From positions 1-49,552 of IMG/VR virus record IMGVR_UViG_3300006872_000002: a stretch of 49,552 nucleotides of DNA, one strand, 5' to 3'. Shown here in pieces: positions 35,966 through 49,525 of the stretch; the stretch's first letter is position 1, and every line of letters begins with the position of its first letter. The notes beneath the pieces were generated by a model that saw only the letters and a list, made by a program, of their open reading frames with translations, was not told where the DNA came from and did no database searches. A program made the translations under genes and the position numbers. Source of the stretch: a virus (Duplodnaviria > Caudoviricetes).

Positions 35966-37150
35966 TCACCCCTTTACACAAAGGACTTGACGAAGTTCTG
36001 CAACCACAGTGACCAAATCATTTTGGTCCATCATCACTTGATCGATTGGTTTGTATGCAGCGGGAATTTCATCAACCACACCTGCATCTTTACGACACAC
36101 AATACCTTCTGTCTGCTTAACCACATCCTCTGCAGTGTAAAGTGACTTTGCTTTACCTCGTGACAATTGGCGACCTGCGCCATGTGAACAGGAACAAAAA
36201 GAATCAGGATTCCCTAATCCTTGCACAATGTATGAACGGGTACCCATTGAACCAGGAATAATACCCAAATCATCCATGCGAGCCCTCACTGCACCCTTTC
36301 TAGTAACAATGACATTCTCTCCAAAATGATTCTCACGTTCTGCGTAGTTATGGTGACAATTGACCATTGTGATTGGTTCAAGTCGGTCATCACCAACGAA
36401 ACTTGATATTTCGTCAAGAACTAATGACATCATAATTTCACGATTTTTCATAGCATAAGACTGTGCCCACTGCAAATCCGACCAATAAGCATTGAATAAT
36501 TCATGTCCCTCTGGCAAATATGCCAAATCTGGGTTTTCTAATTTAATCATGAATGTCTTCATTAATTCTTTTGCTCGATCAATGTAATAATTTCCAATAA
36601 CATTTCCAATTCCACGAGAACCAGAATGCAACACTACCCACACATTATCTTGTGTGTCCAGACACACTTCAATAAAATGGTTCCCCCCACCCAATGTTCC
36701 CATCTGTGACAACATCTTATCCTGTCGATCTTTTTTCACTTCCACAGGAAGAGAGTTGAACCCCCTAAGACCCTTCCAGAAAAGAGTATGGTTCACTGGG
36801 GTTTTATGTTGATCCTGCCCAACCGGAACGGCTTTAGAAATATAAGAAAATAAATCATCCAAATTATCTGGTAAATGTTGACCTTTGAGAGGAAGCATCG
36901 CTGCCATCATCCCACATCCAATATCCACACCCACTGCAGCAGGGACCAATGCTCCCTTCGTTGCAACAACAGATCCAACAGTAGCACCCTTACCATAGTG
37001 GACATCAGGCATCGCAGCAACATGTTTAAAGACAAATGGTAGTCCTGCAGTCTGTCTCAATTGGACTTCAGACTGAGAATCCACATTATTGGTCCAGATC
37101 TTAACTGGAACCGTCTGTTTTTCTCCTGTTAACACCTTTGCAACTGGCAT
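35966..37150 (-). CDS. rtcB: RtcB RNA ligase
   Basis: MPDVH.G.GAT.G, GVDIGCGM, GTLGGGNHF.E, LHSGSRG, CHHNY, PGSMG, SCSHGAGR, DE.P.AYK. Confidence 0.96.
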   Translation of the reverse strand: MPVAKVLTGEKQTVPVKIWTNNVDSQSEVQLRQTAGLPFVFKHVAAMPDVHYGKGATVGSVVATKGALVPAAVGVDIGCGMMAAMLPLKGQHLPDNLDDLFSYISKAVPVGQDQHKTPVNHTLFWKGLRGFNSLPVEVKKDRQDKMLSQMGTLGGGNHFIEVCLDTQDNVWVVLHSGSRGIGNVIGNYYIDRAKELMKTFMIKLENPDLAYLPEGHELFNAYWSDLQWAQSYAMKNREIMMSLVLDEISSFVGDDRLEPITMVNCHHNYAERENHFGENVIVTRKGAVRARMDDLGIIPGSMGTRSYIVQGLGNPDSFCSCSHGAGRQLSRGKAKSLYTAEDVVKQTEGIVCRKDAGVVDEIPAAYKPIDQVMMDQNDLVTVVAELRQVLCVKG

Positions 37151-37171
37151 GATATCTCCCTATTCAATTTA

Positions 37172-37199
37172 ATTATACCAAATTCTACGTCTTTGTCAA
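37172..37199 (-). promoter_or_regulatory. Strong sigma70-type promoter of rtcB
   Basis: TTGACA-16-TATAAT with TG. Confidence 0.75.
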
Positions 37200-37505
37200 C
37201 TCCATAAGTCTCTCATAATTGATGAATCGAGTCATATCATCAAGTCTTTGATTTGAGTACATATCTTTACAAAATTCATCAAACAACTCATCTTTCGACA
37301 ATGTTATTGTACCAGATCCACAGCAAAATTCACACTCTTCTAAATTGTCGAATTCATTACGAAATACCCCACGACCAGAACAAGATTCACACTCCCCAGA
37401 AACCTCATCCTCTACTCTATTAGATTGGTCAAACTCTTTCTTCAATTCATAATAATGCAATCGAGTCCAATCTTTTTGGTCCATAGTCTTTGAACTAAAA
37501 GACAT
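37185..37505 (-). CDS. Hypothetical protein with CxxCxGxG zinc motif
   Basis: CESCSGRG...CEFCCGSG. Confidence 0.6.
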   Translation of the reverse strand: MSFSSKTMDQKDWTRLHYYELKKEFDQSNRVEDEVSGECESCSGRGVFRNEFDNLEECEFCCGSGTITLSKDELFDEFCKDMYSNQRLDDMTRFINYERLMELTKT

Positions 37506-37692
37506 AATGGTTCCTCTTGGATTGATAATGTTCCGTAATCCATTTTACTTGACGTGGTGACAGTGCTTCATGAACAAATCCTGTCAATGAGTTAAATAGA
37601 ATCACCTCACCATGTAGGACCTTTAACTCTTGATTATGAAATTCCCAAACCAATGTCAAATCTTTATCTGAATAAACTTCATTCGCTTTCAT
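37495..37692 (-). CDS. Hypothetical protein
   Basis: MKANEV start with GGAGG RBS and TAATG overlap. Confidence 0.55.
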   Translation of the reverse strand: MKANEVYSDKDLTLVWEFHNQELKVLHGEVILFNSLTGFVHEALSPRQVKWITEHYQSKRNHYVF

Positions 37693-38102
37693 TATTGCCT
37701 CCATAGTTTATTAAACTCACTTGTTGCCCAATGCAAAAAGTTCAATCCTGCATCCGTGGTAAAATATTTGTAATTACCCTGTCTCACAGTCTCCCACATG
37801 CACAATGATTTTTTATAATTGTCTTTTTTACTTTTAATTTCTTCCTCTTGCATTTTAACTTTTTCTAACTCTTTTGCAATACATTCTTCTTGTTTATCAG
37901 ACTCACATTCTAATTTTGAAATAGTAGAGTTTAAATTAACAATTTCCTGACGCAAATCAGTAATTATTTTTTCATGTTCAATAACATCAAAAGATTTACT
38001 ATTGGCTATATCCCTGGCTTCCCTAAGATCTATTTTTAGATTATGAATATAATCTTTGAGTTCTTCAATTTCCTCAAGAAAATCTTCATTGGTTTTATTC
38101 AT
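37692..38102 (-). CDS. Coiled-coil hypothetical protein
   Basis: MNKTNEDF start overlapping the ligase stop. Confidence 0.6.
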   Translation of the reverse strand: MNKTNEDFLEEIEELKDYIHNLKIDLREARDIANSKSFDVIEHEKIITDLRQEIVNLNSTISKLECESDKQEECIAKELEKVKMQEEEIKSKKDNYKKSLCMWETVRQGNYKYFTTDAGLNFLHWATSEFNKLWRQ

Positions 38103-39231
38103 AATCCCTAACCACAATACCAACTGGGAAAATTGGTATTCCCTCATCAGAAAGGCTTTGATAACGAACAGTTAATTGTTTCCCAATGAATTCCTTACGA
38201 TTATTCCACTGATGTTCTCGTTCCTTCATGGTCGCTTTACAACGAACATCAAATGTTCCATCACCATACACACCACCAGTCTTACTCTTTGACTGGCAGC
38301 GGAATATTGCTTTGTGTTCGTCTTTACCCTTTCCATCCTTACATCCAACAATCACAAATTCTTCATCAATAAAATCCTTATACTTCTGCAACTGATTATG
38401 TCGATATTGGAAGCAATAGGGGTCATTTGAACCAGATCGTACAATAGATCCCTCATATCCCTTTTCCACATACACCCCATGCAATGCTTTCAACTCAGTC
38501 TCATTTGCAACAAGTTGTGTAGATACGAATGAAAAATATGGAGCATTGATACCATTACGAAGTGCATATTTCCAATCAATATATCGTTCTTTGAACCCAC
38601 CATCACCTGCTCGATCATAACAATGGAAATGAACATACTTTTTCAGTGTGTCAAGATCTGGTGTCTTTTCGTCCTTGATTGCAGAAATTAATTGTTGAAA
38701 TGTCAAATCTCCATGATTATACATTTCACCATCAAGTATTTCACCATCTTTCATGATATTCAAAAATTGTGGATCCATATACAAGGTGAAATTCTTATAC
38801 AATTTTCCTTTCCTGGACAAATAGATAATCTGATCTTTGATACGACAAACCATACAACGAACCCCATTGAGTTTTGGTTGTACATATGCTGGCCAAACAA
38901 TATATTTCTTACGCTCATTATATTTTTGAGCCAGCATAGGAAGAAGTTGCAATTCACCATTCAATTTAGATTCATCCTGAACGTAATTTTTATCAAGTTG
39001 TTTGTTCCACTTAGATTCTGCTTCCATACAAGCCTGTGTAAAATGATTCGTCTCATTAGAACGTCCAATATTTTTCCCCTCGGTGACTTTCTGAGAGGAT
39101 ACTTGAATCTTTCCATTTTTTTGACCATGCTTCACCACAATCAATGAAAAATCATTTTTCTTTTGAACAGAGATTTCCCATTGTTTAATTGCACCACCAG
39201 AAGATTTTCCATACAAAATGGGATACGTCAT
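38095..39231 (-). CDS. lig: ATP-dependent DNA ligase
   Basis: PMLA, QPKLNGVRC (KxNG), LDGE.Y, GYEG.IVR, L.KYK.F.D.EF, LTVRYQ......P.FP. Confidence 0.9.
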   Translation of the reverse strand: MTYPILYGKSSGGAIKQWEISVQKKNDFSLIVVKHGQKNGKIQVSSQKVTEGKNIGRSNETNHFTQACMEAESKWNKQLDKNYVQDESKLNGELQLLPMLAQKYNERKKYIVWPAYVQPKLNGVRCMVCRIKDQIIYLSRKGKLYKNFTLYMDPQFLNIMKDGEILDGEMYNHGDLTFQQLISAIKDEKTPDLDTLKKYVHFHCYDRAGDGGFKERYIDWKYALRNGINAPYFSFVSTQLVANETELKALHGVYVEKGYEGSIVRSGSNDPYCFQYRHNQLQKYKDFIDEEFVIVGCKDGKGKDEHKAIFRCQSKSKTGGVYGDGTFDVRCKATMKEREHQWNNRKEFIGKQLTVRYQSLSDEGIPIFPVGIVVRDYE

Positions 39232-39232
39232 C

Positions 39233-40171
39233 TTATTCCCTTTCTTTATGGTGTAGGTCCATGATCGTATACAATAGATTATCACACTTCTCATCATTTA
39301 CTGTATCAGGAAGTAAAGATTTTTCTGACAATTCTTCCAACTCTACCATCAAATTCTCAAGCATTGGTGAGACATTACTAAAATGTAATTCCCCATTCTT
39401 AATTTGTTTTAGAAAGTCAACTTGTTTTAGTGGATATGTAAAATCTCCATGTGTCAAAATATCTTTCACCTGAAAGGCAGCACGGAATGCATGAGAGATT
39501 GCCTTCCAATCAATACCCTGATTGGTTTCTGCTTGACGTGCTCGTTCACCAAATTCTTTAACAAAATTCTGCAACATACCAACATAATTATCAGTAGTTG
39601 CAGAAAGAGTCATTTTCTTTCCACACACTTCATAAAACTTACTATCGTCCGATGGTCCACAATGTTCTCCAACTGGAAGAAGATGCAACACATCATGGAT
39701 CTTCTTCTTTGGGTGTTGACGAAGAGATTCTAAAACATTTTTTGCATCCGCTAACCGGCTACCTTTTATACCATACTTTGCGGCTTGTGTTCTCGCATAT
39801 CCAACAAATGATGATAATTTTCTGGTATAGAACAAATGTCTGCTCTTATGAATAATCACCCAATCCAAATTGAATGTGATCCAAAACTCACTTGGTGCAT
39901 GGAGCATATCGAGTGCAACAGTTTCACCCTTCTTTGCAAGTTCAAAGAAATAGGGAAGAGAATATAATTCTCTATCCACATCATTAGATGAATTTTTTAC
40001 ACTACTATTTGTCTTAGTATTATTTGAAATGCTCTTTGGAGTTCTGCAGAAGTAGAGTTCTCTTTTTGATGGGATAAACACCCCCTTATAATCCTTGTCG
40101 GATGAGGGGGTGTTGGTTCCATATAGATGGGAACCAAAAATCATCTCAACTAATGTTGTTCTGTTGCTCAT
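39233..40171 (-). CDS. Pol-beta superfamily nucleotidyltransferase (RlaP / T4 NrdC.11-like)
   Basis: FGSHLYGT.TP.SD.DYKGVF, F.GYA..QA.KY, DWKA.SHA.R, L..IK.G. Confidence 0.85.
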   Translation of the reverse strand: MSNRTTLVEMIFGSHLYGTNTPSSDKDYKGVFIPSKRELYFCRTPKSISNNTKTNSSVKNSSNDVDRELYSLPYFFELAKKGETVALDMLHAPSEFWITFNLDWVIIHKSRHLFYTRKLSSFVGYARTQAAKYGIKGSRLADAKNVLESLRQHPKKKIHDVLHLLPVGEHCGPSDDSKFYEVCGKKMTLSATTDNYVGMLQNFVKEFGERARQAETNQGIDWKAISHAFRAAFQVKDILTHGDFTYPLKQVDFLKQIKNGELHFSNVSPMLENLMVELEELSEKSLLPDTVNDEKCDNLLYTIMDLHHKERE

Positions 40172-40178
40172 GATATGA

Positions 40179-40207
40179 AGTATATCAAACCAATCACAAA
40201 TTGTCAA
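40179..40207 (-). promoter_or_regulatory. Sigma70-type promoter (leaderless transcript likely)
   Basis: TTGACA-17-TATACT; ATG 7 nt after the -10. Confidence 0.7.
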
Positions 40208-41291: not shown

Positions 41292-41366
41292 TGGTGGACC
41301 CTGTAGGTGCTGCCCCTACCACCTCTACAGTGTCAATGTAGTGATCTGCTGCTGATCTAAGGGTCC
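41292..41366 (-). tRNA. tRNA-Val(GAC)
   Basis: Cloverleaf, CCA, loop TT-GAC-AC; T-loop GGCAGCA. Confidence 0.85.
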
Positions 41367-41370
41367 AGAG

Positions 41371-41448
41371 TGGTCCGCCTGACAGGACTCGAACCTGCAT
41401 GATTCTGGTGTCGAAAACCAGATGACTTCCAATTGTCATCACAGGCGG
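41371..41448 (-). tRNA. tRNA-Arg(TCG)
   Basis: Cloverleaf, CCA, loop TT-TCG-AC. Confidence 0.9.
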
Positions 41449-41798
41449 CTAATAATCTCCATCCATTCCTGGTCAAGAATACAGTTCTTTGGTGCATTCT
41501 TAAACATAGGTGCTATTTGTTCGTTCGTATATCCTGCAAGACCACACCCAATACGTGTCACAATAAATCTCATCTCTGGATGTGATTCTGCAAACAATAA
41601 AAACACATCAACAAGTACTTTGATATTATTAAGAGGAAGAGGTTTTAAATTATGATCTTTGGTTGCGATGGCATATGCATTTCCTGTTAAACCTAATCCC
41701 TGGCCATATTCTGCTCCATAAAATTTCCGTGCATGAAGTGCAGCACCCTTCCCATGTCTACCAGCAAGATTTGACCCAAACACAAAAATTTCTCTCAT
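41439..41798 (-). CDS. Conserved phage protein (IFVFGSN.AG.HG.GAA; macrodomain-like)
   Basis: MREIFVFGSNLAGRHGKGAA, AYAI.TK, F.VT.IGCGLAG. Confidence 0.8.
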   Translation of the reverse strand: MREIFVFGSNLAGRHGKGAALHARKFYGAEYGQGLGLTGNAYAIATKDHNLKPLPLNNIKVLVDVFLLFAESHPEMRFIVTRIGCGLAGYTNEQIAPMFKNAPKNCILDQEWMEIISRL

Positions 41799-41811
41799 GA
41801 TATAAATTCTA

Positions 41812-41887
41812 TGGTGCCGCTGACAGGACTCGAACCTGCATCATCTTCTTTAGGAAAGAAGTTCCCGTCCAATTGGGCGACAGCGGC
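41812..41887 (-). tRNA. tRNA-Arg(CCT)
   Basis: Cloverleaf, CCA, loop TT-CCT-AA. Confidence 0.9.
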
Positions 41888-42042
41888 AATTTATTTGTTA
41901 TGAATAATATTTTGAATTACCTTTTTATGTTGACCCATTCTCTTAGAAAGAGAAATGAGATAAGATAATTTTTTAGAATTTCCACTTAATTGGTTTTTTA
42001 CTATTTTTAATAGTTCTTGTAAGTATAAAGTATTCATAGTTT

Positions 42043-42118
42043 TGGTGCCCCCGGCAGGACTCGAACCTGCATGATCCTGATTAGAAGTCAGGTGCCTTTC
42101 CAGTTAGACTACGGAGGC
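42043..42118 (-). tRNA. tRNA-Arg(TCT)
   Basis: Cloverleaf, CCA, loop CT-TCT-AA. Confidence 0.92.
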
Positions 42119-42122
42119 AATA

Positions 42123-42211
42123 TGGCGGAAGATGGAGTACTCGAAACTCATCCCCCGAAAGGAACCATCTGTTTTCGAGACAGTGCCAGCGTCCTATCTG
42201 GTTCATCTTCC
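42123..42211 (-). tRNA. tRNA-Ser(CGA)
   Basis: Long variable arm, G73, loop CT-CGA-AA. Confidence 0.9.
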
Positions 42212-42215
42212 AAAT

Positions 42216-42520
42216 TGGTGGAGGTGCAGGGTATTGCAGCCCTGGTCCAAAGAAACTAATAAAGTGGAATCTCCATGCTACTCAATCAATGACACGACAA
42301 TCGAAGGATTGAGACAACGATTGTTTGTGAAACGAAACTTCAACAACCTGAATATCACGCATCCCCACTTACAGGCTTCAGTGGACCAGCGAGCAGCACT
42401 TACGCTGCTAATGCAAAATTAGATTCGACAGTTTCAATTGCTTGTGAGATTAACGTGGACACCAGCACCCACGGCATGTCCCATCTTCTTTCGTATTCCT
42501 TGTCGATACTATTCACCCCC
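42216..42520 (-). ncRNA. ssrA: tmRNA, tag (A)VESNFALAA*
   Basis: 5' GGGGGTG...TCGAC; 3' CACCTCC-A-CCA with G3:U70; internal AACT-GTC GAA TCT AAT TTT GCA TTA GCA GCG TAA. Confidence 0.92.
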
Positions 42521-42526
42521 ATATTA

Positions 42527-42614
42527 TGGCGGAAGGTACAGGATTTGAACCTGTGTGTGTTTTACCACGCATCGCTTTCCAAGCGAGCCGAATAGGCCAC
42601 TCTCGCAACCTTCC
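42527..42614 (-). tRNA. tRNA-Ser(GGA)
   Basis: Long variable arm, loop TT-GGA-AA. Confidence 0.9.
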
Positions 42615-42621
42615 AAAAATC

Positions 42622-42694
42622 TAGGAGCGGATAATCCAGGATCTCTGAAATTATCCGCGTCCCGTATGCCCGCTTTCTCACATGGAGAACGGGT
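42622..42694 (-). ncRNA. Unknown two-hairpin structured spacer RNA
   Basis: cccg-ttctc/gagaa-cggg and gcggataat/attatccgc stems between two Ser tRNAs. Confidence 0.45.
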
Positions 42695-42701
42695 CTTAAA
42701 C

Positions 42702-42791
42702 TGGCGGAGAGCAGAGGACTCGAACCCCATACCCTTTCAGGTACAATCCGCTTTCAAGACGGTTGTGTTAACCCGTAACACTTTACTTTCC
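42702..42791 (-). tRNA. tRNA-Ser(TGA)
   Basis: Long variable arm, loop CT-TGA-AA. Confidence 0.9.
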
Positions 42792-42797
42792 AAAACA

Positions 42798-42872
42798 TGG
42801 TGCTCCTACAGGGTGTCGATCCCTGTCTTCCAGATTGAGAATCTGGCGACCTAGCCGGTAGTCGATAGGAGC
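42798..42872 (-). tRNA. tRNA-Glu(CTC)
   Basis: Loop TT-CTC-AA; T-loop ATCGACA. Confidence 0.88.
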
Positions 42873-42876
42873 ATTA

Positions 42877-42951
42877 TGGTGGACCACCACGGTACTGCCC
42901 CGTATTCCCCAGGTTAAGAGCCTGGTGCATCACTATTAATGCTTGTAGTCC
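42877..42951 (-). tRNA. tRNA-Lys(CTT)
   Basis: Loop CT-CTT-AA; T-loop GGCAGTA. Confidence 0.85.
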
Positions 42952-42956
42952 GTCTA

Positions 42957-43033
42957 TGGTGTCCCCGACTGGATTTCAACCAGTGTCTCCACCTTCGCAG
43001 GGTGGTATGATATGCAGGCTTCACTACGGGGAC
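42957..43033 (-). tRNA. tRNA-Arg(GCG)
   Basis: Loop CT-GCG-AA. Confidence 0.88.
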
Positions 43034-43038
43034 ATATA

Positions 43039-43113
43039 TGGTAGACGGTAGTGGTACTGCCCCACTCTTGTCTCGCGTGTAAGGCGAGTGCATCCCTTCT
43101 CTGCCAACCGTCC
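43039..43113 (-). tRNA. tRNA-Val(TAC)
   Basis: Loop CT-TAC-AC; T-loop GGCAGTA. Confidence 0.85.
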
Positions 43114-43120
43114 GTTAAAA

Positions 43121-43197
43121 TGGAGCCCCTTGTTGGACTTGCACCAACCGTTTCCACTTTACCAAAGTGGCGTGTCAACTACCTCTACTTAAGGGGC
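43121..43197 (-). tRNA. tRNA-Thr(GGT)
   Basis: Loop TT-GGT-AA; T-loop TGCAAGT. Confidence 0.85.
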
Positions 43198-43205
43198 GCA
43201 AAAAT

Positions 43206-43515
43206 CTGAGTCCAACTATACCCGGCATTCTGTATTCTTCTGTCATTTCTCTAGGAGTATCATTACTGATACCCTCAAGCCACCTACCCGTTCGTTTTGT
43301 GCGAGCAGCACACGAACCTATTTGGTGTTGCACCAGATGGAGATTGCTCGTTTCACCCACCACCAACACCGTAGTGCGTCAAATCATTCGGTGGTGACTC
43401 GTCTCTGTGGCTCTAATCATCAGGTCACCCTGTGTGGTTGTTAACCACCATCTTGCTCTTGGTGTGCCGAAGTTCCTCTAGGTCTGTTACCCTAGCGACA
43501 GAATGTTGAACTCAG
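43206..43515 (-). ncRNA. rnpB: RNase P RNA (compact, about 310 nt)
   Basis: P1 ctgagttcaac/gttggactcag; GAGGAACTTCGGCA pairing with ACAGAATGCCGGGTA (P4); AGAGCCACAGAGA and GGTGAAACG (L11/12); P18 with GTAA tetraloop; CCTAGAGAAATGA before P2. Confidence 0.88.
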
Positions 43516-43689
43516 TAGTCCTTTCTTTACTTTAATACTACCTCGTAACAAATGATGTTTTCCACATATATGACAAAGAGAATCTTTATATTTACGCAAT
43601 TTGCATTTTATACAATACGACCAAAATTCTTCTCCGTTCTTTCCAAATCCAAATGAATTATGATTACATAACATTTGTTTTTTAGTCAT
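43492..43689 (-). CDS. Small Cys/His-rich hypothetical protein
   Basis: 65 aa, CxxC pairs; fills the gap between tRNA-Leu and rnpB but overlaps the rnpB 5' end. Confidence 0.4.
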   Translation of the reverse strand: MTKKQMLCNHNSFGFGKNGEEFWSYCIKCKLRKYKDSLCHICGKHHLLRGSIKVKKGLLSSTFCR

Positions 43690-43696
43690 AATAATA

Positions 43697-43773
43697 TGGT
43701 ACCTAGGGTGGGAGTCGAACCCACAGAAACCTGTTTTTGAGACAGGTATGTTTGCCAGTTACATCACCTAGGT
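43697..43773 (-). tRNA. tRNA-Leu(CAA), short variable loop
   Basis: Loop CT-CAA-AA; 77 nt. Confidence 0.88.
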
Positions 43774-43938
43774 ATTAATCTGTGAAAGAACTTCCAACTT
43801 TGCTTCAATAACTCTGATGTCATTTGCCGCGTCACAAACACCATGCCAATCATGCTCATCCATCTTTGTTCTCAAATATGATATCATAACTGATTTTGAA
43901 TGAATAAGAAACTCAATTTGTTTTTCTTTACCATTCAC
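43768..43938 (-). CDS. Small hypothetical protein (YL..K....DWHGV.DAA.D.R)
   Basis: GTG start with GGAGG RBS; 56 aa. Confidence 0.65.
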   Translation of the reverse strand: MNGKEKQIEFLIHSKSVMISYLRTKMDEHDWHGVCDAANDIRVIEAKLEVLSQINT

Positions 43939-43955
43939 AATATACCTCCATAATA

Positions 43956-44033
43956 TGGTGCCGTGGGTGGGAGTCGAACCCACAAACGAATCGTTTTAAG
44001 CGATCCAGGTATGCCAGTTCCCTTCACCACGGC
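43956..44033 (-). tRNA. tRNA-Leu(TAA), short variable loop
   Basis: Loop CT-TAA-AA; 78 nt. Confidence 0.88.
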
Positions 44034-44034
44034 G

Positions 44035-44080
44035 TTATCGAGTTTAACACATATTTACCACTTATCGAGTTTAACACATA
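44035..44080. repeat. 19-bp direct repeat in a tRNA spacer
   Basis: ttatcgagtttaacacata at 44035-44053 and 44062-44080. Confidence 0.9.
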
Positions 44081-44084
44081 AACA

Positions 44085-44159
44085 TGGAGCCGCTTGACGG
44101 AATCGAACCGTCTTATCTGCTTTACGAAAGCAGCACATCACCGTGTATGTTTAAGCGGC
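44085..44159 (-). tRNA. tRNA-Thr(CGT)
   Basis: Loop TT-CGT-AA. Confidence 0.88.
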
Positions 44160-44176
44160 AATGTCTATTAAACTGT

Positions 44177-44251
44177 TGGTGCCGCCGGTAGGAGTCGAAC
44201 CCACCTGAATCCGGTTAAAAGCCGGGAGCATAGCCGCTCTGCCACGACGGC
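44177..44251 (-). tRNA. tRNA-Lys(TTT)
   Basis: Loop CT-TTT-AA. Confidence 0.9.
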
Positions 44252-44258
44252 GTTACAT

Positions 44259-44336
44259 TGGTCTGGATGGTGGGATTTGAACCCACAATTTCTCGTCTCC
44301 GAAACGAGAGGAGTAGCCTGGTTCTCCTACATCCAG
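44259..44336 (-). tRNA. tRNA-Pro(CGG)
   Basis: Loop TT-CGG-AG; C1-G72, A73. Confidence 0.9.
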
Positions 44337-44349
44337 TTATGTTTCTATT

Positions 44350-44426
44350 GATGGTGGCTAGCCATCCTGGGAGATTGCACTATGCCATCTCACTTCGCTA
44401 CAATGGTTAAATTGTGTGAGACCCAG
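44350..44426 (-). ncRNA. Unknown structured spacer RNA
   Basis: Nested ctggg/cccag, tctcac/gtgaga and acaat/attgt stems plus a gatgg/ccatc hairpin. Confidence 0.45.
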
Positions 44427-44441
44427 TATATATTTAAACTT

Positions 44442-44517
44442 TGGAGCGGGTTATGGGAATTGCACCCATACGAACAGGGTGGAAACCTGTCATGCTGCTG
44501 TTGAACATCAAACCCGC
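44442..44517 (-). tRNA. tRNA-Gly(TCC)
   Basis: Loop TT-TCC-AC; U73; T-loop TGCAATT. Confidence 0.88.
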
Positions 44518-44528
44518 ATATTCAATTT

Positions 44529-44603
44529 TGGAGCGGATGGTGGGAGTCGAACCCACGTGATCTTCCTTGGCAAGGAAGCACATAACCGTTCTGTCACATC
44601 CGC
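44529..44603 (-). tRNA. tRNA-Gly(GCC)
   Basis: Loop TT-GCC-AA; U73. Confidence 0.9.
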
Positions 44604-44754
44604 ATTCTTTTTTACGAGGGATTTCACTTTTCTTATTGTTCCGGCTCTTTTTTCGCATAGGATGTAACTCCCATCTCTTTTCCTCATCGGTATCGATGAG
44701 TATTTCGAGCAAACATTACAGTTTGGCTAACCTCGAACCGTCTATCCTCATAAA

Positions 44755-44829
44755 TGGCGCGGAATGGAGGACTTGAACCCCCTCGGCTACCTCTTCAGGG
44801 TAGTGTTCTGCCAGTTAAACTAATTCCGC
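44755..44829 (-). tRNA. tRNA-Phe(GAA)
   Basis: Loop CT-GAA-GA; atypical G37 and G73. Confidence 0.85.
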
Positions 44830-44833
44830 ATAT

Positions 44834-44908
44834 TGGCTCCAGGGGTAGGGATCGAACCTACGATAGCCTGATTAACAGTCAGGTGCCGTACCGCTTGGCT
44901 ACCCTGGA
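44834..44908 (-). tRNA. tRNA-Asn(GTT)
   Basis: Loop CT-GTT-AA; U1-A72, G73. Confidence 0.92.
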
Positions 44909-45111
44909 ATAATATCTTTACATCGTCTCATTACTTTGCATGTTGGACAATATAGCATTGTCCCATATTGTTTTCTATATGGACTATTTGCTGCGTACAC
45001 ATTACCATATACCTTATACCTTAAAATCATTTATACAATATGTGCATCGAACAGTTTTTCTTTTTGGAAACCGTCTTTCACCAAACCATCCCACATATCA
45101 CCAAAATTTTT

Positions 45112-45311
45112 AGGAGAGACACCTTTCATCATAGCGATATAACCGGCATGCTATGACTCTCTGAACTGCTTGTACCATTTAGGAGTATTGCTCTAGCCTT
45201 ATTGAGCACTCCAATCAGGATTATTAACATGTTTGATGGTATCAGATACCATCTCACCTGATCTCAGTTTCGTGTCCCCTCAGAGTAGGTCCAGATTTCT
45301 CTGTTCTCCTT
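45112..45311 (-). ncRNA. Unknown ~200-nt multi-stem ncRNA with its own promoter
   Basis: Ends pair (aggagaaca/tgtctctcct); internal atcagg/cctgat, gatggtat/ataccatc, ggagt/actcc and catagc/gctatg stems. Confidence 0.6.
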
Positions 45312-45318
45312 AATTTTA

Positions 45319-45347
45319 AGAATACCACAATCTAAACTAAAAGTCAA
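45319..45347 (-). promoter_or_regulatory. Sigma70-type promoter within the RNA island
   Basis: TTGACT-17-TATTCT with TGTG. Confidence 0.7.
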
Positions 45348-45348
45348 C

Positions 45349-45424
45349 TGGTAGAGGTATCTAGATTTGAACTAGAACTAAAAGATTCAGAATCTTCTGT
45401 GCTGCCGGGTTACACCATACCTCC
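45349..45424 (-). tRNA. tRNA-Gln(CTG)
   Basis: Loop TT-CTG-AA. Confidence 0.88.
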
Positions 45425-45426
45425 AT

Positions 45427-45957
45427 TTAATTACCAGGTAAATCAATTCCTTCATTAAACCAACGATAGATACTTCTCACTTCTTCAAATGCAATAGGTT
45501 TATACTCTGTCTGCTCAACACAAACACAAATATACCATGGATCCTGTAACTGATTTGCATGTGTGTGTCCATGCACATTTGCTTTAAACCGTCCCTTACT
45601 CTCTGGATGCACAGGAATATGTGACAACAACATCTGATCCATCACATGATACCCACGAACATCACGAAAATACTTTAGGTAATCAGTGATCTTGAAAATA
45701 TCATGATTCCCTTTAATGAGAACCTTGTCACCATTCAATCTATCTAGGATAGCGAGTGCTTTTCTTGCTATGACTACATCTCCCAGGTGATACACTTTGT
45801 CATGGGGTTTAACGATCCTATTCCATTCCTGGACCATGTATTCATCCATTTCCTCTGGATTATCCCATGGTCTCAACTTCGTTCCGTCATTCCGAAGGAA
45901 CTTACAAACCCCTGCATGACTAAAATGTGTATCTGCTGTCAGAAATATGTTACTCAT
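45427..45957 (-). CDS. Calcineurin-like phosphoesterase
   Basis: ADTHF.H, VYHLGD, KGNHD, LSHIP, NVHGH.H; start at MSNIF. Confidence 0.9.
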   Translation of the reverse strand: MSNIFLTADTHFSHAGVCKFLRNDGTKLRPWDNPEEMDEYMVQEWNRIVKPHDKVYHLGDVVIARKALAILDRLNGDKVLIKGNHDIFKITDYLKYFRDVRGYHVMDQMLLSHIPVHPESKGRFKANVHGHTHANQLQDPWYICVCVEQTEYKPIAFEEVRSIYRWFNEGIDLPGN

Positions 45958-46096
45958 CAGATTTACTTTTTGCTGCATTCCATGCCGCAACACATGACCT
46001 AATATTCAGAGTCCTACGATCTTCTAAAGGAAGAGAGAACCACCATTTTTTGAACTCTTCTGAAGTTTTTAGATTTATAATATTCATATTACTCAT
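45950..46096 (-). CDS. Small hypothetical protein (F.KWW...AAWNAA)
   Basis: 48 aa, overlaps the phosphoesterase start. Confidence 0.5.
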   Translation of the reverse strand: MSNMNIINLKTSEEFKKWWFSLPLEDRRTLNIRSCVAAWNAAKSKSDE

Positions 46097-46102
46097 AATG
46101 TA

Positions 46103-46176
46103 TGGAAGGGGGTAGTGGTACTGCCCCACTGTCTGTTGGTTCAAAGCCAACGGTCCTACTATTGAACGAACCCCCT
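46103..46176 (-). tRNA. tRNA-Gln(TTG)
   Basis: Loop CT-TTG-AA; T-loop GGCAGTA. Confidence 0.85.
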
Positions 46177-46191
46177 ATAACCTTTCAACCA

Positions 46192-46279
46192 TGGCGGAAG
46201 TGGAAGGATTTGAACCTTCGTGGGTGTTACCCCGCATCCCTTAGCAGGGGAGCCTATTAAGCCTCTCTAGCACACTTCC
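46192..46279 (-). tRNA. tRNA-Ser(GCT)
   Basis: Long variable arm; loop CT-GCT-AA. Confidence 0.9.
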
Positions 46280-46293
46280 AAAAACATTTACAT

Positions 46294-46393
46294 TGGTGCA
46301 GCCCAGATCCGTTAGGATCTCACCCTAGAACAACCGGAAGTTAATTACGCTCCCTTTATTCTAGGTACAGAGTGGAGCGACCACAAGGACTGC
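46294..46393 (-). ncRNA. CCA-ended tRNA-like RNA with internal pseudoknot
   Basis: Acceptor GCAGTCC/GGGCTGC-A-CCA, stacked agatcc/ggatct hairpin, interleaved cgctcc/ggagcg and cctagaa/ttctagg stems. Confidence 0.65.
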
Positions 46394-46399
46394 ATACGA

Positions 46400-46474
46400 T
46401 GGAGTCGCCGATAGGATTCGAACCTACATACAACCGCTTTGCAGGCGGCGACCTAGCCTTTCAGTCACGGCGAC
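46400..46474 (-). tRNA. tRNA-Cys(GCA)
   Basis: Loop CT-GCA-AA; U73. Confidence 0.9.
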
Positions 46475-46481
46475 ATTAAAT

Positions 46482-46557
46482 TGGCGCACCTGACGGGTAA
46501 CGATCCCGCTTCATTCTTGATTGACAATCAAGCGCCTATCCTACTGGCTCCAGGTGC
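46482..46557 (-). tRNA. tRNA-Asp(GTC)
   Basis: Loop TT-GTC-AA; G73; T-loop ATCGTTA. Confidence 0.88.
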
Positions 46558-46565
46558 AATATTCT

Positions 46566-46631
46566 GATCGGTATCTTTCTACTTGTTACGACCCCCAAAG
46601 GGGGATGGGAATTGCACCCATGTCTCCGACC
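46566..46631 (-). ncRNA. Circularly permuted tRNA-like RNA (YrlA-like domain), copy 2
   Basis: ggtcgg - agac - T arm atggg/TGCAATT/cccat - closed acceptor ccccc/ttt/ggggg - D-like loop - ccgatc. Confidence 0.65.
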
Positions 46632-46643
46632 TTGCTCTGTAAC

Positions 46644-46727
46644 TGGTGGATCATCAAGGAGTCGAACCTTGTGAGAATTAACGACTGCTTTACAGGCAGC
46701 CCCGCCTCCGTAACGGTTTAATGATCC
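46644..46727 (-). tRNA. tRNA-Tyr(GTA)
   Basis: Loop CT-GTA-AA; variable arm. Confidence 0.88.
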
Positions 46728-46735
46728 GTATTTTT

Positions 46736-46764
46736 ATTATAACAAACTATACACTAAAAATCAA
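46736..46764 (-). promoter_or_regulatory. Sigma70-type promoter within the tRNA island
   Basis: TTGATT-17-TATAAT with TG. Confidence 0.7.
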
Positions 46765-46766
46765 GG

Positions 46767-46855
46767 TGGTCCACCCGTAAGGAATCGAACCTTATCGAGA
46801 CACCAATCTAGTGTGAGGGGTTTATAAGACCCCCTTGCCTCCAAGGCGCGGGTGG
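46767..46855 (-). tRNA. Non-canonical tRNA with TAT (Ile) anticodon, long variable arm, shrunken D arm
   Basis: CCACCCG/CGGGTGG-A-CCA; ggggt-CT TAT AA-acccc; V-arm acact/ggtgt; D arm gcct-tgg-aggc. Confidence 0.8.
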
Positions 46856-46861
46856 AAATTT

Positions 46862-46939
46862 TGGTGTCGGTGGGGAGAGTCGAACTCCCAAACACTTGGT
46901 TCTAAGCCAAGTAGGTATGCCAGTTCCCTTCACACCGAC
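46862..46939 (-). tRNA. tRNA-Leu(TAG), short variable loop
   Basis: Loop CT-TAG-AA; 78 nt. Confidence 0.88.
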
Positions 46940-47331
46940 GATTTCTTTCTTCTCCAAGTTGGTGTCTGTGAATGGCAGTTTGGACATAGAAATCTTAAAT
47001 TGTCCCTACTACTATTCTTTTTATTACCATCTTTATGATCCAACTCCAAAACAAGTCTGCCACCCAGCCACTCACTTAATCCACAAAGACACTTGCCACC
47101 CTGTTCCTCTAATACTTTTCTTCTTTTCTCTGGTATATTATACTCGTTCCAAGAAAGAGTGTTATATCGTTTTTCCCGTATTATTTTCTTTTTTTCTACA
47201 GCAAGGCACCAATCATCTTTACCAAAAAGTTTTCTTCTTGAATCATATCCTTTTTTGAAACCAGCCTGGTGAACTCTTCTACCCTTAAGGGAATCTGATA
47301 TCTTTTTGTTTATTGCCTTTTGATCCCTCAT
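46930..47331 (-). CDS. HNH homing endonuclease
   Basis: C.CG..EW....L.LELDHKDGN..N....NLRFLCPNCHSQT. Confidence 0.9.
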   Translation of the reverse strand: MRDQKAINKKISDSLKGRRVHQAGFKKGYDSRRKLFGKDDWCLAVEKKKIIREKRYNTLSWNEYNIPEKRRKVLEEQGGKCLCGLSEWLGGRLVLELDHKDGNKKNSSRDNLRFLCPNCHSQTPTWRRKKSSV

Positions 47332-47344
47332 AATAAATCCTAAA

Positions 47345-47418
47345 TGGTGGCGGTAGAAGGAATTGCACCTTCTAGATAGGACTTATGAAATCCTTCTGCT
47401 TCGCTTGTGCTTACCGCC
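47345..47418 (-). tRNA. tRNA with CAT anticodon (Met elongator or Ile2)
   Basis: Loop TT-CAT-AA; weak D arm; T-loop TGCAATT. Confidence 0.75.
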
Positions 47419-47422
47419 GTCA

Positions 47423-47499
47423 TGGTAGCGGGTCAAGGAGTTGCACCTTGAACTTGAGTTTATGAGACTCAACGGGTCACTGTCCCCTTCCACGCCGCA
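47423..47499 (-). tRNA. tRNA-Met(CAT), initiator-like acceptor
   Basis: 1:72 mismatch plus GCGG/CCGC; loop CT-CAT-AA; lacks the three G-C pairs in the anticodon stem. Confidence 0.7.
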
Positions 47500-47512
47500 A
47501 ATTTTTAAAACC

Positions 47513-47623
47513 GGCACTGTGCTACCCGTTACACTAAACTCTTCATCAGTCTTACAGTCTGCAGCCCGGAATCTTAATTCTATAACTGATTTCTGAGTCG
47601 CGGAATCGAACCGCTCTAGTGCC
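47513..47623 (-). ncRNA. Circularly permuted tRNA-like RNA (YrlA-like domain), copy 1
   Basis: ggcact - ag - T arm gcgg/TTCGATT/ccgc - gactc [extended atcagt/actgat hairpin] gagtt - TA - D arm gtgt/aacgggta/gcac - agtgcc. Confidence 0.78.
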
Positions 47624-47630
47624 TCATTCC

Positions 47631-47708
47631 TGGTGTCGTTGGGGAGAGTCGAACTCCCAAGCAACTGGCTCTCGACCAGTTAGGTATACCAATTCCCTTC
47701 ACAACGAC
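47631..47708 (-). tRNA. tRNA-Leu(GAG), short variable loop, C33
   Basis: Loop TC-GAG-AG; near-paralogue of Leu(TAG). Confidence 0.8.
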
Positions 47709-47716
47709 GATATTAA

Positions 47717-47810
47717 TTGTGTAGGTGCCTAAGTTCACGTCTAGACTCTGTTACTTGGGGCATATGACCTCCCCACCTACAGCAGCGACTATGTTCTACA
47801 ACCTACACAA
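47717..47810 (-). ncRNA. Unknown ~95-nt RNA closed by a 10-bp terminal stem
   Basis: ttgtgtaggt ... acctacacaa. Confidence 0.5.
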
Positions 47811-47817
47811 ATTTATA

Positions 47818-47890
47818 TGGTAAGGTCCTATCTTGGATGACAAACAGTTTCAAGTCTGTTTGCCTGAGCATCGCACTCAGGATTACTTAC
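47818..47890 (-). ncRNA. T-arm-less tRNA-like RNA with CCA and a Ser(TGA)-like anticodon loop
   Basis: gtaag/cttac-ca end; cctgagt/gctcagg hairpin; caaacag-aCTTGAAAa-ctgtttg hairpin; no T arm. Confidence 0.55.
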
Positions 47891-47895
47891 ACATT

Positions 47896-47973
47896 TGGTC
47901 TAGGGGGTGGGATTTGAACCCACGGTTTCTCGCTTCCAAAGCGAGAGGATCAACCAGACTTTCCTACCCCTAG
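47896..47973 (-). tRNA. tRNA-Pro(TGG)
   Basis: Loop TT-TGG-AA. Confidence 0.9.
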
Positions 47974-47979
47974 ATATTT

Positions 47980-48053
47980 TGGTGGACCAGTCGCCGAATC
48001 GAACGGTGTTGACCTTACGCAGAAAGCCCATGGTGTCCACACCATACCAGCCC
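47980..48053 (-). tRNA. Aberrant Ala-identity tRNA-like RNA (8-bp acceptor, G3:U70, 6-nt anticodon loop)
   Basis: GGGCTGGT/ACTGGTCC-A-CCA; long D hairpin atggtgt/acaccat; TTCGATT T-loop. Confidence 0.55.
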
Positions 48054-48062
48054 ACAATAATT

Positions 48063-48137
48063 TGGCGCTCCTTGTGGGTATCGATCCCACTCCGCCGGCT
48101 TGAAAGGCCGGAATCCTAGCCAGTAGACGAAAGGAGC
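48063..48137 (-). tRNA. tRNA-Glu(TTC)
   Basis: Loop CT-TTC-AA; T-loop ATCGATA. Confidence 0.9.
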
Positions 48138-48143
48138 ATAATT

Positions 48144-48218
48144 TGGTGGAGGCTGGCGGTTCTGCCCCGCCGACTTCTCGGTGCAAGTGAGATGGTTTCC
48201 TAATTAGCCTAAGCCCCC
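48144..48218 (-). tRNA. tRNA-Ala(TGC)
   Basis: G3:U70; loop CT-TGC-AC; T-loop GGCAGAA. Confidence 0.85.
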
Positions 48219-48225
48219 ATATTTT

Positions 48226-48512
48226 TAGCCCACATTTTAATCATCCCTAACCGGACAAACACCAAAAAGTGCATGCGGAGTTGCTTACCGGCTTGGGAGT
48301 GTTGCGAGTAGCACTAGCACTTTAACGGCTACGGTACATCTCGCGTCCCAAACCTACATTTTGTTACCCTTTTACCCCACCGTGTGTAGTGAGAACCCCT
48401 TGATATTATCACAAGGTAAGGATAACTCTTTTAAGGTCGCCCCGCCGGAGACATCTTAATGTTGGTCCTGTCATAAGCAGCCGAGCAACATTCTCAATAT
48501 CCCATTGGGACG
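48226..48512 (-). ncRNA. Unknown ~290-nt ornate structured RNA
   Basis: cgtcccaa/ttgggacg closing stem; aatgttg/caacatt; gttatcctt/aagggtaac; gcgag/ctcgc; tccc..gccgg/ccggt..ggga; no ORF of 60 aa or more. Confidence 0.6.
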
Positions 48513-48513
48513 T

Positions 48514-48587
48514 TGGGGTGATCGGTGGGTAACGCTCCCACTTTTCCTGGGCCACAACCAGGCGCATTTCTTTTATGCTACGACCAC
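48514..48587 (-). tRNA. tRNA-His(GTG), no encoded G-1
   Basis: Loop TT-GTG-GC; C73; T-loop AGCGTTA. Confidence 0.85.
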
Positions 48588-48589
48588 AA

Positions 48590-48665
48590 TGGAGCCGCTG
48601 ACTGGACTTGCACCAGCCTAATCCTCCTTACAAGAGAGGTGATCAACTACCTGACCCACAGCGGC
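48590..48665 (-). tRNA. tRNA-Thr(TGT)
   Basis: Loop CT-TGT-AA; T-loop TGCAAGT. Confidence 0.87.
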
Positions 48666-48680
48666 ATTCTTATAATATGT

Positions 48681-48742
48681 ATAGGAGATAGGATTTATGG
48701 GATCAGTTGTATGTCCTGAAAGCCAACCTACACAACTCCTAT
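48681..48742 (-). ncRNA. Small structured element downstream of the HNH gene
   Basis: ataggag/ctcctat terminal stem; shares TTGTGTAGGTTG with the 47717-47810 element. Confidence 0.4.
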
Positions 48743-48783
48743 GCATCTGGAGTATGCTTGGTGTTTACATCACTCCCAACATA

Positions 48784-49308
48784 TTACTTTAACTCACAAT
48801 TCCAATACAAGTAATCTGCCCACGTTTCTGGCATCTTACGCAACCCAATTGTCACGGTCACAACTTGTGACCAGATCGGTTGCTTTGGTTTCTTCAACAA
48901 CTTCATTCCTGCTTGCTCTGGTGTTCTTCCTTCTTTCTTTGAATTACAAGGAACACAAGCAGTTACGATATTTTCCCATGTTTTCACACCACCCTGTGAA
49001 ACTGGTTTTACATGGTCAAAAGTCAATTCTTCTGAATCAAACTTCTGTGCACAATACTGACATGTAAACCCATCTCTTGTAAAAATATTCAAACGAGTAA
49101 ACTTCACAGGTGCTTTTCTACGAAAACGAACCGGAACAAGCATTCTCAAAACTGAAGGAATCTTCATGCTGAAAGAGATTGAATGAATCTCTTCTTCATG
49201 TTCCTCCAAGACCTCAACCTTACCAGTCCAAAGCAACGTAATTGCTCGTTGCCAGTTAACAACTTGTAAGGGTTCATATGAACTGTTTAACAGCAATGTC
49301 ATATGCAT
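48784..49308 (-). CDS. McrA-like HNH endonuclease
   Basis: LLLN.SYEPL..V.WQRAI.L, F.R.NIF.RD..TCQYC, LT.DHV.P.S.GG..TWENIV.AC..CN..K. Confidence 0.92.
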   Translation of the reverse strand: MHMTLLLNSSYEPLQVVNWQRAITLLWTGKVEVLEEHEEEIHSISFSMKIPSVLRMLVPVRFRRKAPVKFTRLNIFTRDGFTCQYCAQKFDSEELTFDHVKPVSQGGVKTWENIVTACVPCNSKKEGRTPEQAGMKLLKKPKQPIWSQVVTVTIGLRKMPETWADYLYWNCELK

Positions 49309-49332
49309 GATGCTTCTCCCAACGTTTCTATC

Positions 49333-49361
49333 ACTATAACAAATCCAAATTCATTTGTCAA
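49333..49361 (-). promoter_or_regulatory. Sigma70-type promoter driving HNH and downstream RNAs
   Basis: TTGACA-17-TATAGT with TG. Confidence 0.75.
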
Positions 49362-49370
49362 CTACAAACT

Positions 49371-49444
49371 TGGCACCGGATGCAGGAGTCGAACCTGCGC
49401 CAACGGTTTTGGAGACCGTCATGCTTCCGTAACACCTATCCGGT
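49371..49444 (-). tRNA. tRNA-Trp(CCA)
   Basis: Loop CT-CCA-AA; G73. Confidence 0.9.
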
Positions 49445-49451
49445 ATATATA

Positions 49452-49525
49452 TGGTACGCCTCCACGGAATTGCACCGCGATCATCCGCTAATCAGGCGGA
49501 GGTACTTCTATTGTACGAGAGGCGT
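49452..49525 (-). tRNA. tRNA-Ile(GAT)
   Basis: Loop CT-GAT-TA (atypical U37); T-loop TGCAATT. Confidence 0.83.

Follow-up and report, generated by a model that had tools for sequence, protein, structure and literature searches.

A full-length RNase P RNA gene with a variant P4 helix in the tRNA cluster of an uncultured T4-like phage

RNase P RNA is the ribozyme that trims the 5' leaders from new tRNAs. It is regarded as a housekeeping ribozyme of cells and is used as a marker in judging whether cell genomes are complete. The closest described relatives of the gene presented here are the bacterial class A RNAs (RF00010; E. coli M1 RNA, gene rnpB, and that of Thermotoga maritima), with which it shares P1-P12, P15-P18, the P4 and P6 pseudoknots, the bulged U, the A248 equivalent and the GGU of L15. 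In the bacterial enzyme A67 and G68 bind the metal through their phosphates and U69 through its O4 (PMC9433436, PMC3488217), A248 stacks at the cleavage site (PMC9433436), L15 GGU pairs with the 3' RCCA of the tRNA, and the RnpA proteins are interchangeable between bacterial species (PMC4919922). Archaeal RNAs are also found without P13/P14, and those of type M lack P8, P16, P6 and the P15 recognition loop (PMC4919922). The P RNAs of CPR bacteria are likewise compact class A molecules, often without P13/P14, but they are cellular genes and about two-thirds of them are without the CCA-binding motif, which the phage RNA keeps (PMC8172020). Another phage catalytic RNA tied to tRNA genes, with a proposed role in processing tRNA ends, is the theta ribozyme of gut phages; however, theta ribozymes are small, HDV-like and self-cleaving, acting in cis on 3' trailers, whereas the phage P RNA is a large RNA of the trans-acting 5' endonuclease type (PMC10879173).

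No paper on a phage or viral RNase P RNA was found in the open literature, supplements and most subscription journals lying outside that scope. The main texts of PMC7162821, PMC10690425, PMC6784885 and PMC7824862 do not mention RNase P, and no phage RNase P RNA is described in the available passages of PMC8172020, PMC11143913, PMC10879173, bioRxiv 10.64898/2026.09.22.753630, PMC4919922, PMC6565675, PMC9433436, PMC3488217, PMC9697503 and PMC10264068. Rfam or RNAcentral may already list viral P RNA matches. What makes the present locus of interest is its viral setting and the lability of P4: compared with bacterial class A genes, the phage copy lies among the clustered tRNA genes of a lytic-type phage whose complete relatives give no rnpA match, has five P4 pairs changed (C67-G359 and U68.G358 included) and has no P13/P14.

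The DNA analyzed (the window, i.e., the whole stretch of 49,552 bases) is a virus record with T4-like baseplate, tail tube, gp32, gp59 and gp33 genes (PHROGs), and its gp32 is about 50% identical to the gp32 of Pelagibacter and Synechococcus myophages. Its source is an uncultured T4-like phage, in which the RNase P RNA gene sits within a cluster of tRNA and tmRNA genes. With cmscan and Rfam, RF00010 matched at 43514-43203 on the minus strand over model positions 1-367, all 367 of them, with 192.2 bits against a gathering score of 100 (E 9.8e-61). This is a full-length bacterial class A RNase P RNA gene of 312 nt. A first-pass annotation made from the letters alone had called a phage-encoded RNase P RNA at 43206-43515 and named a covariance-model search as its check; the identity and the location hold, with a score well above the gathering score and phage genes on both flanks, while the ends moved by 1-3 bases. 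The features of the gene, all on the minus strand, are as follows.

43203..43514, minus: RNase P RNA gene, class A, 312 nt (RF00010, helix pairing, covariation in relatives), P1-P12 and P15-P18 present
43465..43473, minus: P4 5' strand, with C (43472) and U (43471) at bacterial A67 and G68, and the bulged U at 43470
43220..43227, minus: P4 3' strand carrying the changes that compensate; all 8 pairs form, 7 of them Watson-Crick and 1 U.G
43454..43458, minus: P6 pseudoknot 5' strand, 5 pairs with the P17 loop at 43307-43303
43350..43408, minus: specificity-domain core, regions II (from 43408) and III (from 43356) around P12, rejoining P11 directly without P13/P14
43328..43331, minus: J5/15, containing the A248 equivalent at 43329
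43286..43288, minus: GGU motif of the L15 loop (helix mapping)
43244..43274, minus: P18 (8 pairs, GNRA loop) and J18/2 (helix mapping)

When the Rfam structure was mapped onto the sequence, the 18 helix segments gave 85 base pairs, every one of them standard, and both pseudoknots (P4 and P6) form in it. We used this Rfam-guided structure because the minimum-energy fold, which recovers P1-P3, P8, P9 and P16-P18, misplaces the centre and cannot form pseudoknots. The folding z-score was -3.29, none of 100 shuffles being equally stable. Class A membership is visible in the P6 pseudoknot with P16/P17 and in P18 with its GNRA loop (a GNRA loop also caps P9), and conserved regions II-V, the J5/15 adenosine and L15 GGU are all present. 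At the position of E. coli G332 there is an A (43248), as in B. subtilis (PMC9433436). The reported absence of P13/P14 and P19 was borne out, with 0 bases for the 43 model positions of P13/P14 in the RF00010 alignment and P19 missing, and it is ordinary: loss of P13/P14 is described as not unusual in bacteria (PMC8172020), and many cellular rnpB genes are without P19 (in a sample of 301 genomes of one large phylum). To call the ribozyme minimal, as had been done, was wrong, since its 312 nt keep P6, P12 and P15-P18; it is compact only. The specificity domain, almost wholly missing in the Pyrobaculum-type minimal RNA, is here represented by P7-P12 and regions II/III, and the P8, P16, P6 and P15 loop that are absent from archaeal type M are all in place. 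A 65-aa basic frame with two CxxC motifs (43492-43689, minus strand) ends 23 nt inside the P RNA gene, with its stop codon in P3. As a conserved protein subunit this frame was rejected: it has no PHROG match and there is no room for it in the related locus L356, where a tRNA lies 12 nt upstream.

The P4 strands were where the first-pass annotation had read them, at 43473-43465 and 43227-43220, and the changes it had called compensatory are so: five of the eight pairs differ on both sides from the Rfam consensus line and all remain paired. In E. coli numbers, A67-U359 has become C-G, G68-C358 a U.G wobble, C71-G356 G-C, G73-C354 C-G and G74-C353 A-U, i.e., four Watson-Crick swaps and one change to a wobble. 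The metal-binding bulged U is kept at 43470, while in place of the consensus A67 and G68 before it there are C and U, which marks a variant (positions 67-69 were assigned from PMC9433436). An independent contig, L385, 99.87% identical over 6062 bases, carries the same RNA and the same P4, so that an assembly error is excluded. The expression "rewired core" used in the first reading is right about the five changed pairs but overstated, because positions 67 and 68 give phosphate ligands and the U-U arrangement has precedents in archaea and yeast: the triplets equivalent to 67-69 are G40-U41-U42 in M. jannaschii (type M) and A91-U92-U93 in yeast RPR1, both with a U directly before the bulged U as in the phage RNA (PMC6565675). 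Unlike type M, the phage RNA has C first, keeps P8, P6, P16, P18 and L15 GGU, and matches the bacterial model. Since known enzymes work with a U in front of the bulged one, the change is likely a tolerated variant and not new chemistry; the geometry and the bulged U are kept, and 67/68 provide phosphate, not base, ligands. The C at 67 is without precedent in the structures compared, which have A or G there (available passages of PMC9433436, PMC3488217 and PMC6565675). The two Us before C70 may permit a second register for the bulge, a point that counts against reading the RNA as a working ribozyme.

The surroundings of the gene, also on the minus strand, are those of a phage rich in tRNA genes.

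41292..49525, minus: tRNA cluster of at least 37 genes, one strand, reaching the contig end (30 by ARAGORN, 7 more by Rfam and other scans)
43121..43197, minus: tRNA-Thr(GGU) with an atypical T-loop, beginning 10 nt after the end of P1 (Rfam, 42.1 bits)
42216..42520, minus: tmRNA with encoded CCA and a tag frame ending in FALAA (RF00023, 78.6 bits)
35966..40207, minus: RNA/DNA repair genes, i.e., RtcB ligase (35966-37150), DNA ligase and an RlaP-type nucleotidyltransferase (39233-40207) (PHROGs, Pfam)

The tmRNA is likely a second substrate for the phage RNase P RNA. ARAGORN did not detect it and the alignment is poor across its pseudoknot region, with a score below the 89-119 bits of relatives, yet the acceptor stem, CCA and tag frame are intact. 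A non-TTC T-loop is present in 13 of 33 scored tRNAs of the window (41292-48665, minus strand), beginning GGC, UGC, AUC or AGC, and seven of these tRNAs are missed by ARAGORN. Two single tRNAs deserve mention. The tRNA-His (48514-48587, minus) has C73 but U, not G, at -1, as it does in the complete relative G003 (L464 1-85), so that the gene does not encode the customary G-1 identity base and a G may have to be attached once the tRNA is processed. Also shared with G003 is a tRNA of 89 nt (46767-46855, minus) that combines a UAU anticodon with a long variable arm, odd for isoleucine.

A search with the nucleotidyltransferase found six related loci. The two closest relatives are complete 168-kb genomes with direct terminal repeats, and each has a P RNA in the corresponding region, scoring 208.1 and 191.1 bits; in G003 the tRNA order is largely that of the window. 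P4 itself differs, the two nearest loci having A67-G68 (L356) and G67-U68 (L357) where the window has C67-U68. RnpA (PF00825) was found in none of four phage genomes, namely the two complete close relatives and two other large phages bearing a P RNA, by a profile that gave matches in 10 of 14 control genomes. A motif scan gave no convincing RnpA-like match in the window or G003, and Pfam found no RNase P protein, archaeal-type included, among 111 G003 proteins of at least 90 aa (most structural genes left out), nor any RNase P protein among 14 window proteins. The use of host RnpA, already proposed in the first-pass annotation, is still the best reading with these genomes at hand, whereas the window by itself could not show that RnpA is absent because it is a 49.5-kb fragment. 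These negatives come from a Pfam profile and a scan for motifs, so there may be a diverged phage partner; borrowing of the host protein is plausible because bacterial RnpA proteins are interchangeable (PMC4919922). Other gene content of G003 includes a cluster with cellulose-synthase-like glycosyltransferase, BcsS-like, PilZ-like and FeeM-like genes (L464 18779 - L465 7100) and, elsewhere, RF-1-domain, Pth2-like and peptide deformylase genes.

Copies of this gene are widespread among viral sequences. A search pattern made of P18 and conserved regions IV-V, with P4 left unconstrained, gave at least 119 viral loci, of which at least 44 hold a P RNA scoring 100 or more with our own nhmmer profile; 43 were classified. 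Among the matches listed, 15 copies lie on small, tRNA-poor contigs and 13 of these have the exact canonical P4, so they are probably mostly host DNA at prophage edges. In GenBank, the record "Microcystis phage MaAM05" (MW495066.1; L470 2962-3361) holds an unannotated full RNase P RNA (251.8 bits). We rejected it as a copy from a cultured phage, its rnpB standing among fabI, engB and mtgA, which looks like a bacterial chromosome. By blastn the window RNA matched none of 50,697 GenBank phage records, and two other phage P RNAs gave short pieces in 4 and 1 of them, none covering 80%. That rnpB does turn up in virus collections, as in these small contigs and in MaAM05, raises the question of whether the window copy could come from host DNA joined into a chimera, or be a captured fragment that is decaying. 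We regard this as close to negligible: the near-identical independent contig L385 has been mentioned, the flanks are T4-like genes and phage tRNAs, the position is conserved in the two complete genomes, and the changes are paired and not random.

The large-phage set comprised 28 copies among the matches listed, on contigs of at least 55 kb or among at least five tRNAs, with some duplicates. Among these listed matches there were 12 different P4 5' strands, only 5 copies being canonical, in 12 copies the two bases preceding the bulged U were not A-G, and pairing was kept at 195 of 196 P4 pairs (with the 3' strand of L025 and L107 corrected). Across the phage copies, A-G, G-U, C-U, G-C, G-G and C-C are all seen before the bulged U, with pairing kept. 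Together with further scans requiring G358 there were 108 distinct pairable cores, including 11 with C-U, a tally biased by the patterns and by the pairing filter. We discarded a pattern that covered the two P4 strands together because it was too permissive, with about 640 estimated matches that were mostly chance.

Covariation was followed in 24 RNAs, the nearest among about 105 distinct ones chosen for a pairable P4. In these relatives 87.6% of cells pair; the corresponding figures are 63.7% for shuffled controls and 34-42% for slid ones. Of the 85 pairs, 72 show changes on both sides. Kinship alone can beat shuffles, and the structure was derived from one of the rows. Pairing was complete in P4 (192 of 192 cells, in rows chosen for pairing), high in P16 (99%) and P18 (97%), and lower in P6 (66%) and P17 (49%), both poorly aligned, as is P12. 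The bulged U was invariant in 24 of 24 aligned rows and the J5/15 A and L15 GGU were at least 90% conserved, and on this comparison of sequences the fold and the active-site residues are kept in related phages. This conservation bears on the proposal that the RNA does little catalysis and soaks up host RnpA or a host nuclease, diverting host tRNA maturation. An RNA from a phage with no RnpA match would compete for the host protein, and the normally fixed P4 bases are altered; the elements conserved here, however, are unneeded for protein binding, and the phage requires RNase P activity for its own tRNAs. Such a decoy is very improbable.

We consider it likely, from sequence comparison, that the phage class A RNA acts as a ribozyme with borrowed host RnpA, cutting the 5' leaders of the phage tRNAs and tmRNA. 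The RNA would be made within a long tRNA transcript from upstream sigma-70-like promoters, the nearest strong match being at 45347; the strongest upstream sites are 49361, 46764 and 45347, and they are leads only, as the scan gave 22 sites against 16.8 expected. An RNase P cut at the tRNA-Thr 10 nt downstream would then free the 3' end of the P RNA, host RnpA would be its partner, and during infection the enzyme would supply extra capacity to process about 40 new substrates. A tRNA begins at most 25 nt from P1 in 32 of the 41 P RNA copies that lie in clusters, so that cutting that tRNA would free the P RNA 3' end; there was no control for cluster compactness, and the spacing may merely reflect a compact cluster. 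The phage tRNA leaders have U at -1 in 26 of 37 cases and one of U and A at -4 in 32, which fits the normal RNase P preference and the A at the G332 position, but also AT-rich spacers.

The need for a phage P RNA is not obvious. Two observations speak against a general one: T5, a phage with 25 tRNA genes, gave no P RNA match across its tRNA region, and when T4 infects E. coli the host rnpB RNA stays fairly stable (PMC9697503). The phage leaders would also, from their bases, suit a host enzyme. Three candidate reasons may account for the carriage of the gene: capacity, a specialist for atypical tRNAs, and replacement of an attacked host RNA.

The second of these would mean that the host RNase P handles tRNAs with non-TTC T-loops poorly and that the P4 change is part of the tuning. 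Non-TTC loops, 13 of 33 in the window and 16 of 32 in G003, contrast with 0 of 25 in T5 (where non-TT loops likewise come to 0 of 25), and non-TT loops are present in 38 of 97 tRNAs near C67-U68 RNAs (6 loci), 19 of 197 near G67-U68 (18 loci) and 12 of 58 near A67-G68 (5 loci). Four of the six C-U loci belong to one clade, but L423 and L272, outside the clade of the window, show the same link. On the other hand, the closest relative, L356, has the canonical A67/G68 with 7 of 13 atypical loops and L418 is G-U with 8 of 8, whereas other phages with a P RNA have 0 of 15 or 0 of 20. Furthermore, P4 is at the cleavage site, whereas it is the S-domain that reads the tRNA elbow (PMC9433436), and the T-loop scan required C56 and hence was blind to loss of that contact. 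We find this tuning quite unlikely, and the earlier statement that the ribozyme is for the phage's atypical tRNAs is unproven.

The history of P4 bears on the third. The window RNA falls in a six-row clade (support 100/98) that holds C-U, G-U and A-G versions, and in a tree made without the P4 columns the eight C-U rows need at least five changes, a single clade being rejected (p-AU 0.002, with long branches present). On these alignments the C-U version does not form one clade. The RNA trees are short, with weak deep nodes; cores below 205 or above 330 nt were omitted from both, and six archaeal-type rows were omitted from the tree without P4 columns. Repeated change of this kind speaks for the proposal that the host P RNA is destroyed or blocked in infection and that a shifting P4 escapes targeting of the conserved sequence. 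It has also been proposed that altered sequences let phage tRNAs escape host tRNA nucleases (PMC10264068), and RtcB, RlaP and tmRNA genes lie nearby. Nevertheless, we identified neither a nuclease nor a defence system that targets rnpB, the stability of rnpB RNA in T4-infected E. coli speaks against it, 5 of the 28 phage copies among the matches listed keep the exact canonical P4, and relaxed constraint accounts for the lability equally well. We judge replacement unlikely as an explanation in its own right, and it may also underlie the preferred reading, a phage ribozyme working with host RnpA, as its reason. A broader proposal, that tRNA-rich large phages carry a long-diverged RNase P family that takes over host RnpA and in which P4 switches repeatedly under selection, for tRNAs with non-standard T-loops or for escape from host attack, is possible though doubtful.

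Variant P4 helices were also sought in cells. The anchored pattern needs P18 and a fixed motif, so that lineages with other flanks are missed; with the canonical ending it matched 96 of the 301 genomes sampled from one large phylum. With G358 it matched four stretches in 185,579 species genomes, two of which are not RNase P, and C67-G359 was in none of the four, i.e., with this one anchored pattern the C-U version was not found in 185,579 cellular genomes. One match is a second rnpB in an alphaproteobacterial MAG (L362 / G001:C27) that already has its own rnpB. This second gene groups with the phage copies and stands among 9 tRNAs, right after a truncated efflux gene, which suggests a chimeric contig or an inserted phage. 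The remaining match, L364 (WOR-3, cellular), has C68-G358 with the canonical A67-U359 and is without P18, and G358 replaces C in 2 of 11 RNase P-like WOR-3 rows (L364; G002, G316). The idea that P4 is invariant in cells was thus rejected, as WOR-3 genes vary at 68-358; a fair statement is that the variant P4 is rare in cells and common in phages.

With dozens of distinct P RNAs in phage tRNA clusters, it would seem that phages carry tRNAs and likely also the enzyme that matures them. The phage copies amount to a natural mutagenesis of the active-site helix, with three versions inside one six-member clade, and these variants make it testable why bacteria hold A67/G68 nearly fixed though only the phosphates bind metal. 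The size of the molecule also varies. Far shorter P-like RNAs, with 152-211 nt between the P4 strands and a fully paired P4, were seen on the viral contigs L269, L278, L291, L303, L311, L312 and L322; several of them stand among 9-24 tRNAs, and L278 scores below the Rfam threshold and L311 above it. At the other extreme, the P4 strands of L071/L386, L310 and L419 are separated by 434-589 nt, which implies that these very long P RNAs hold large insertions.
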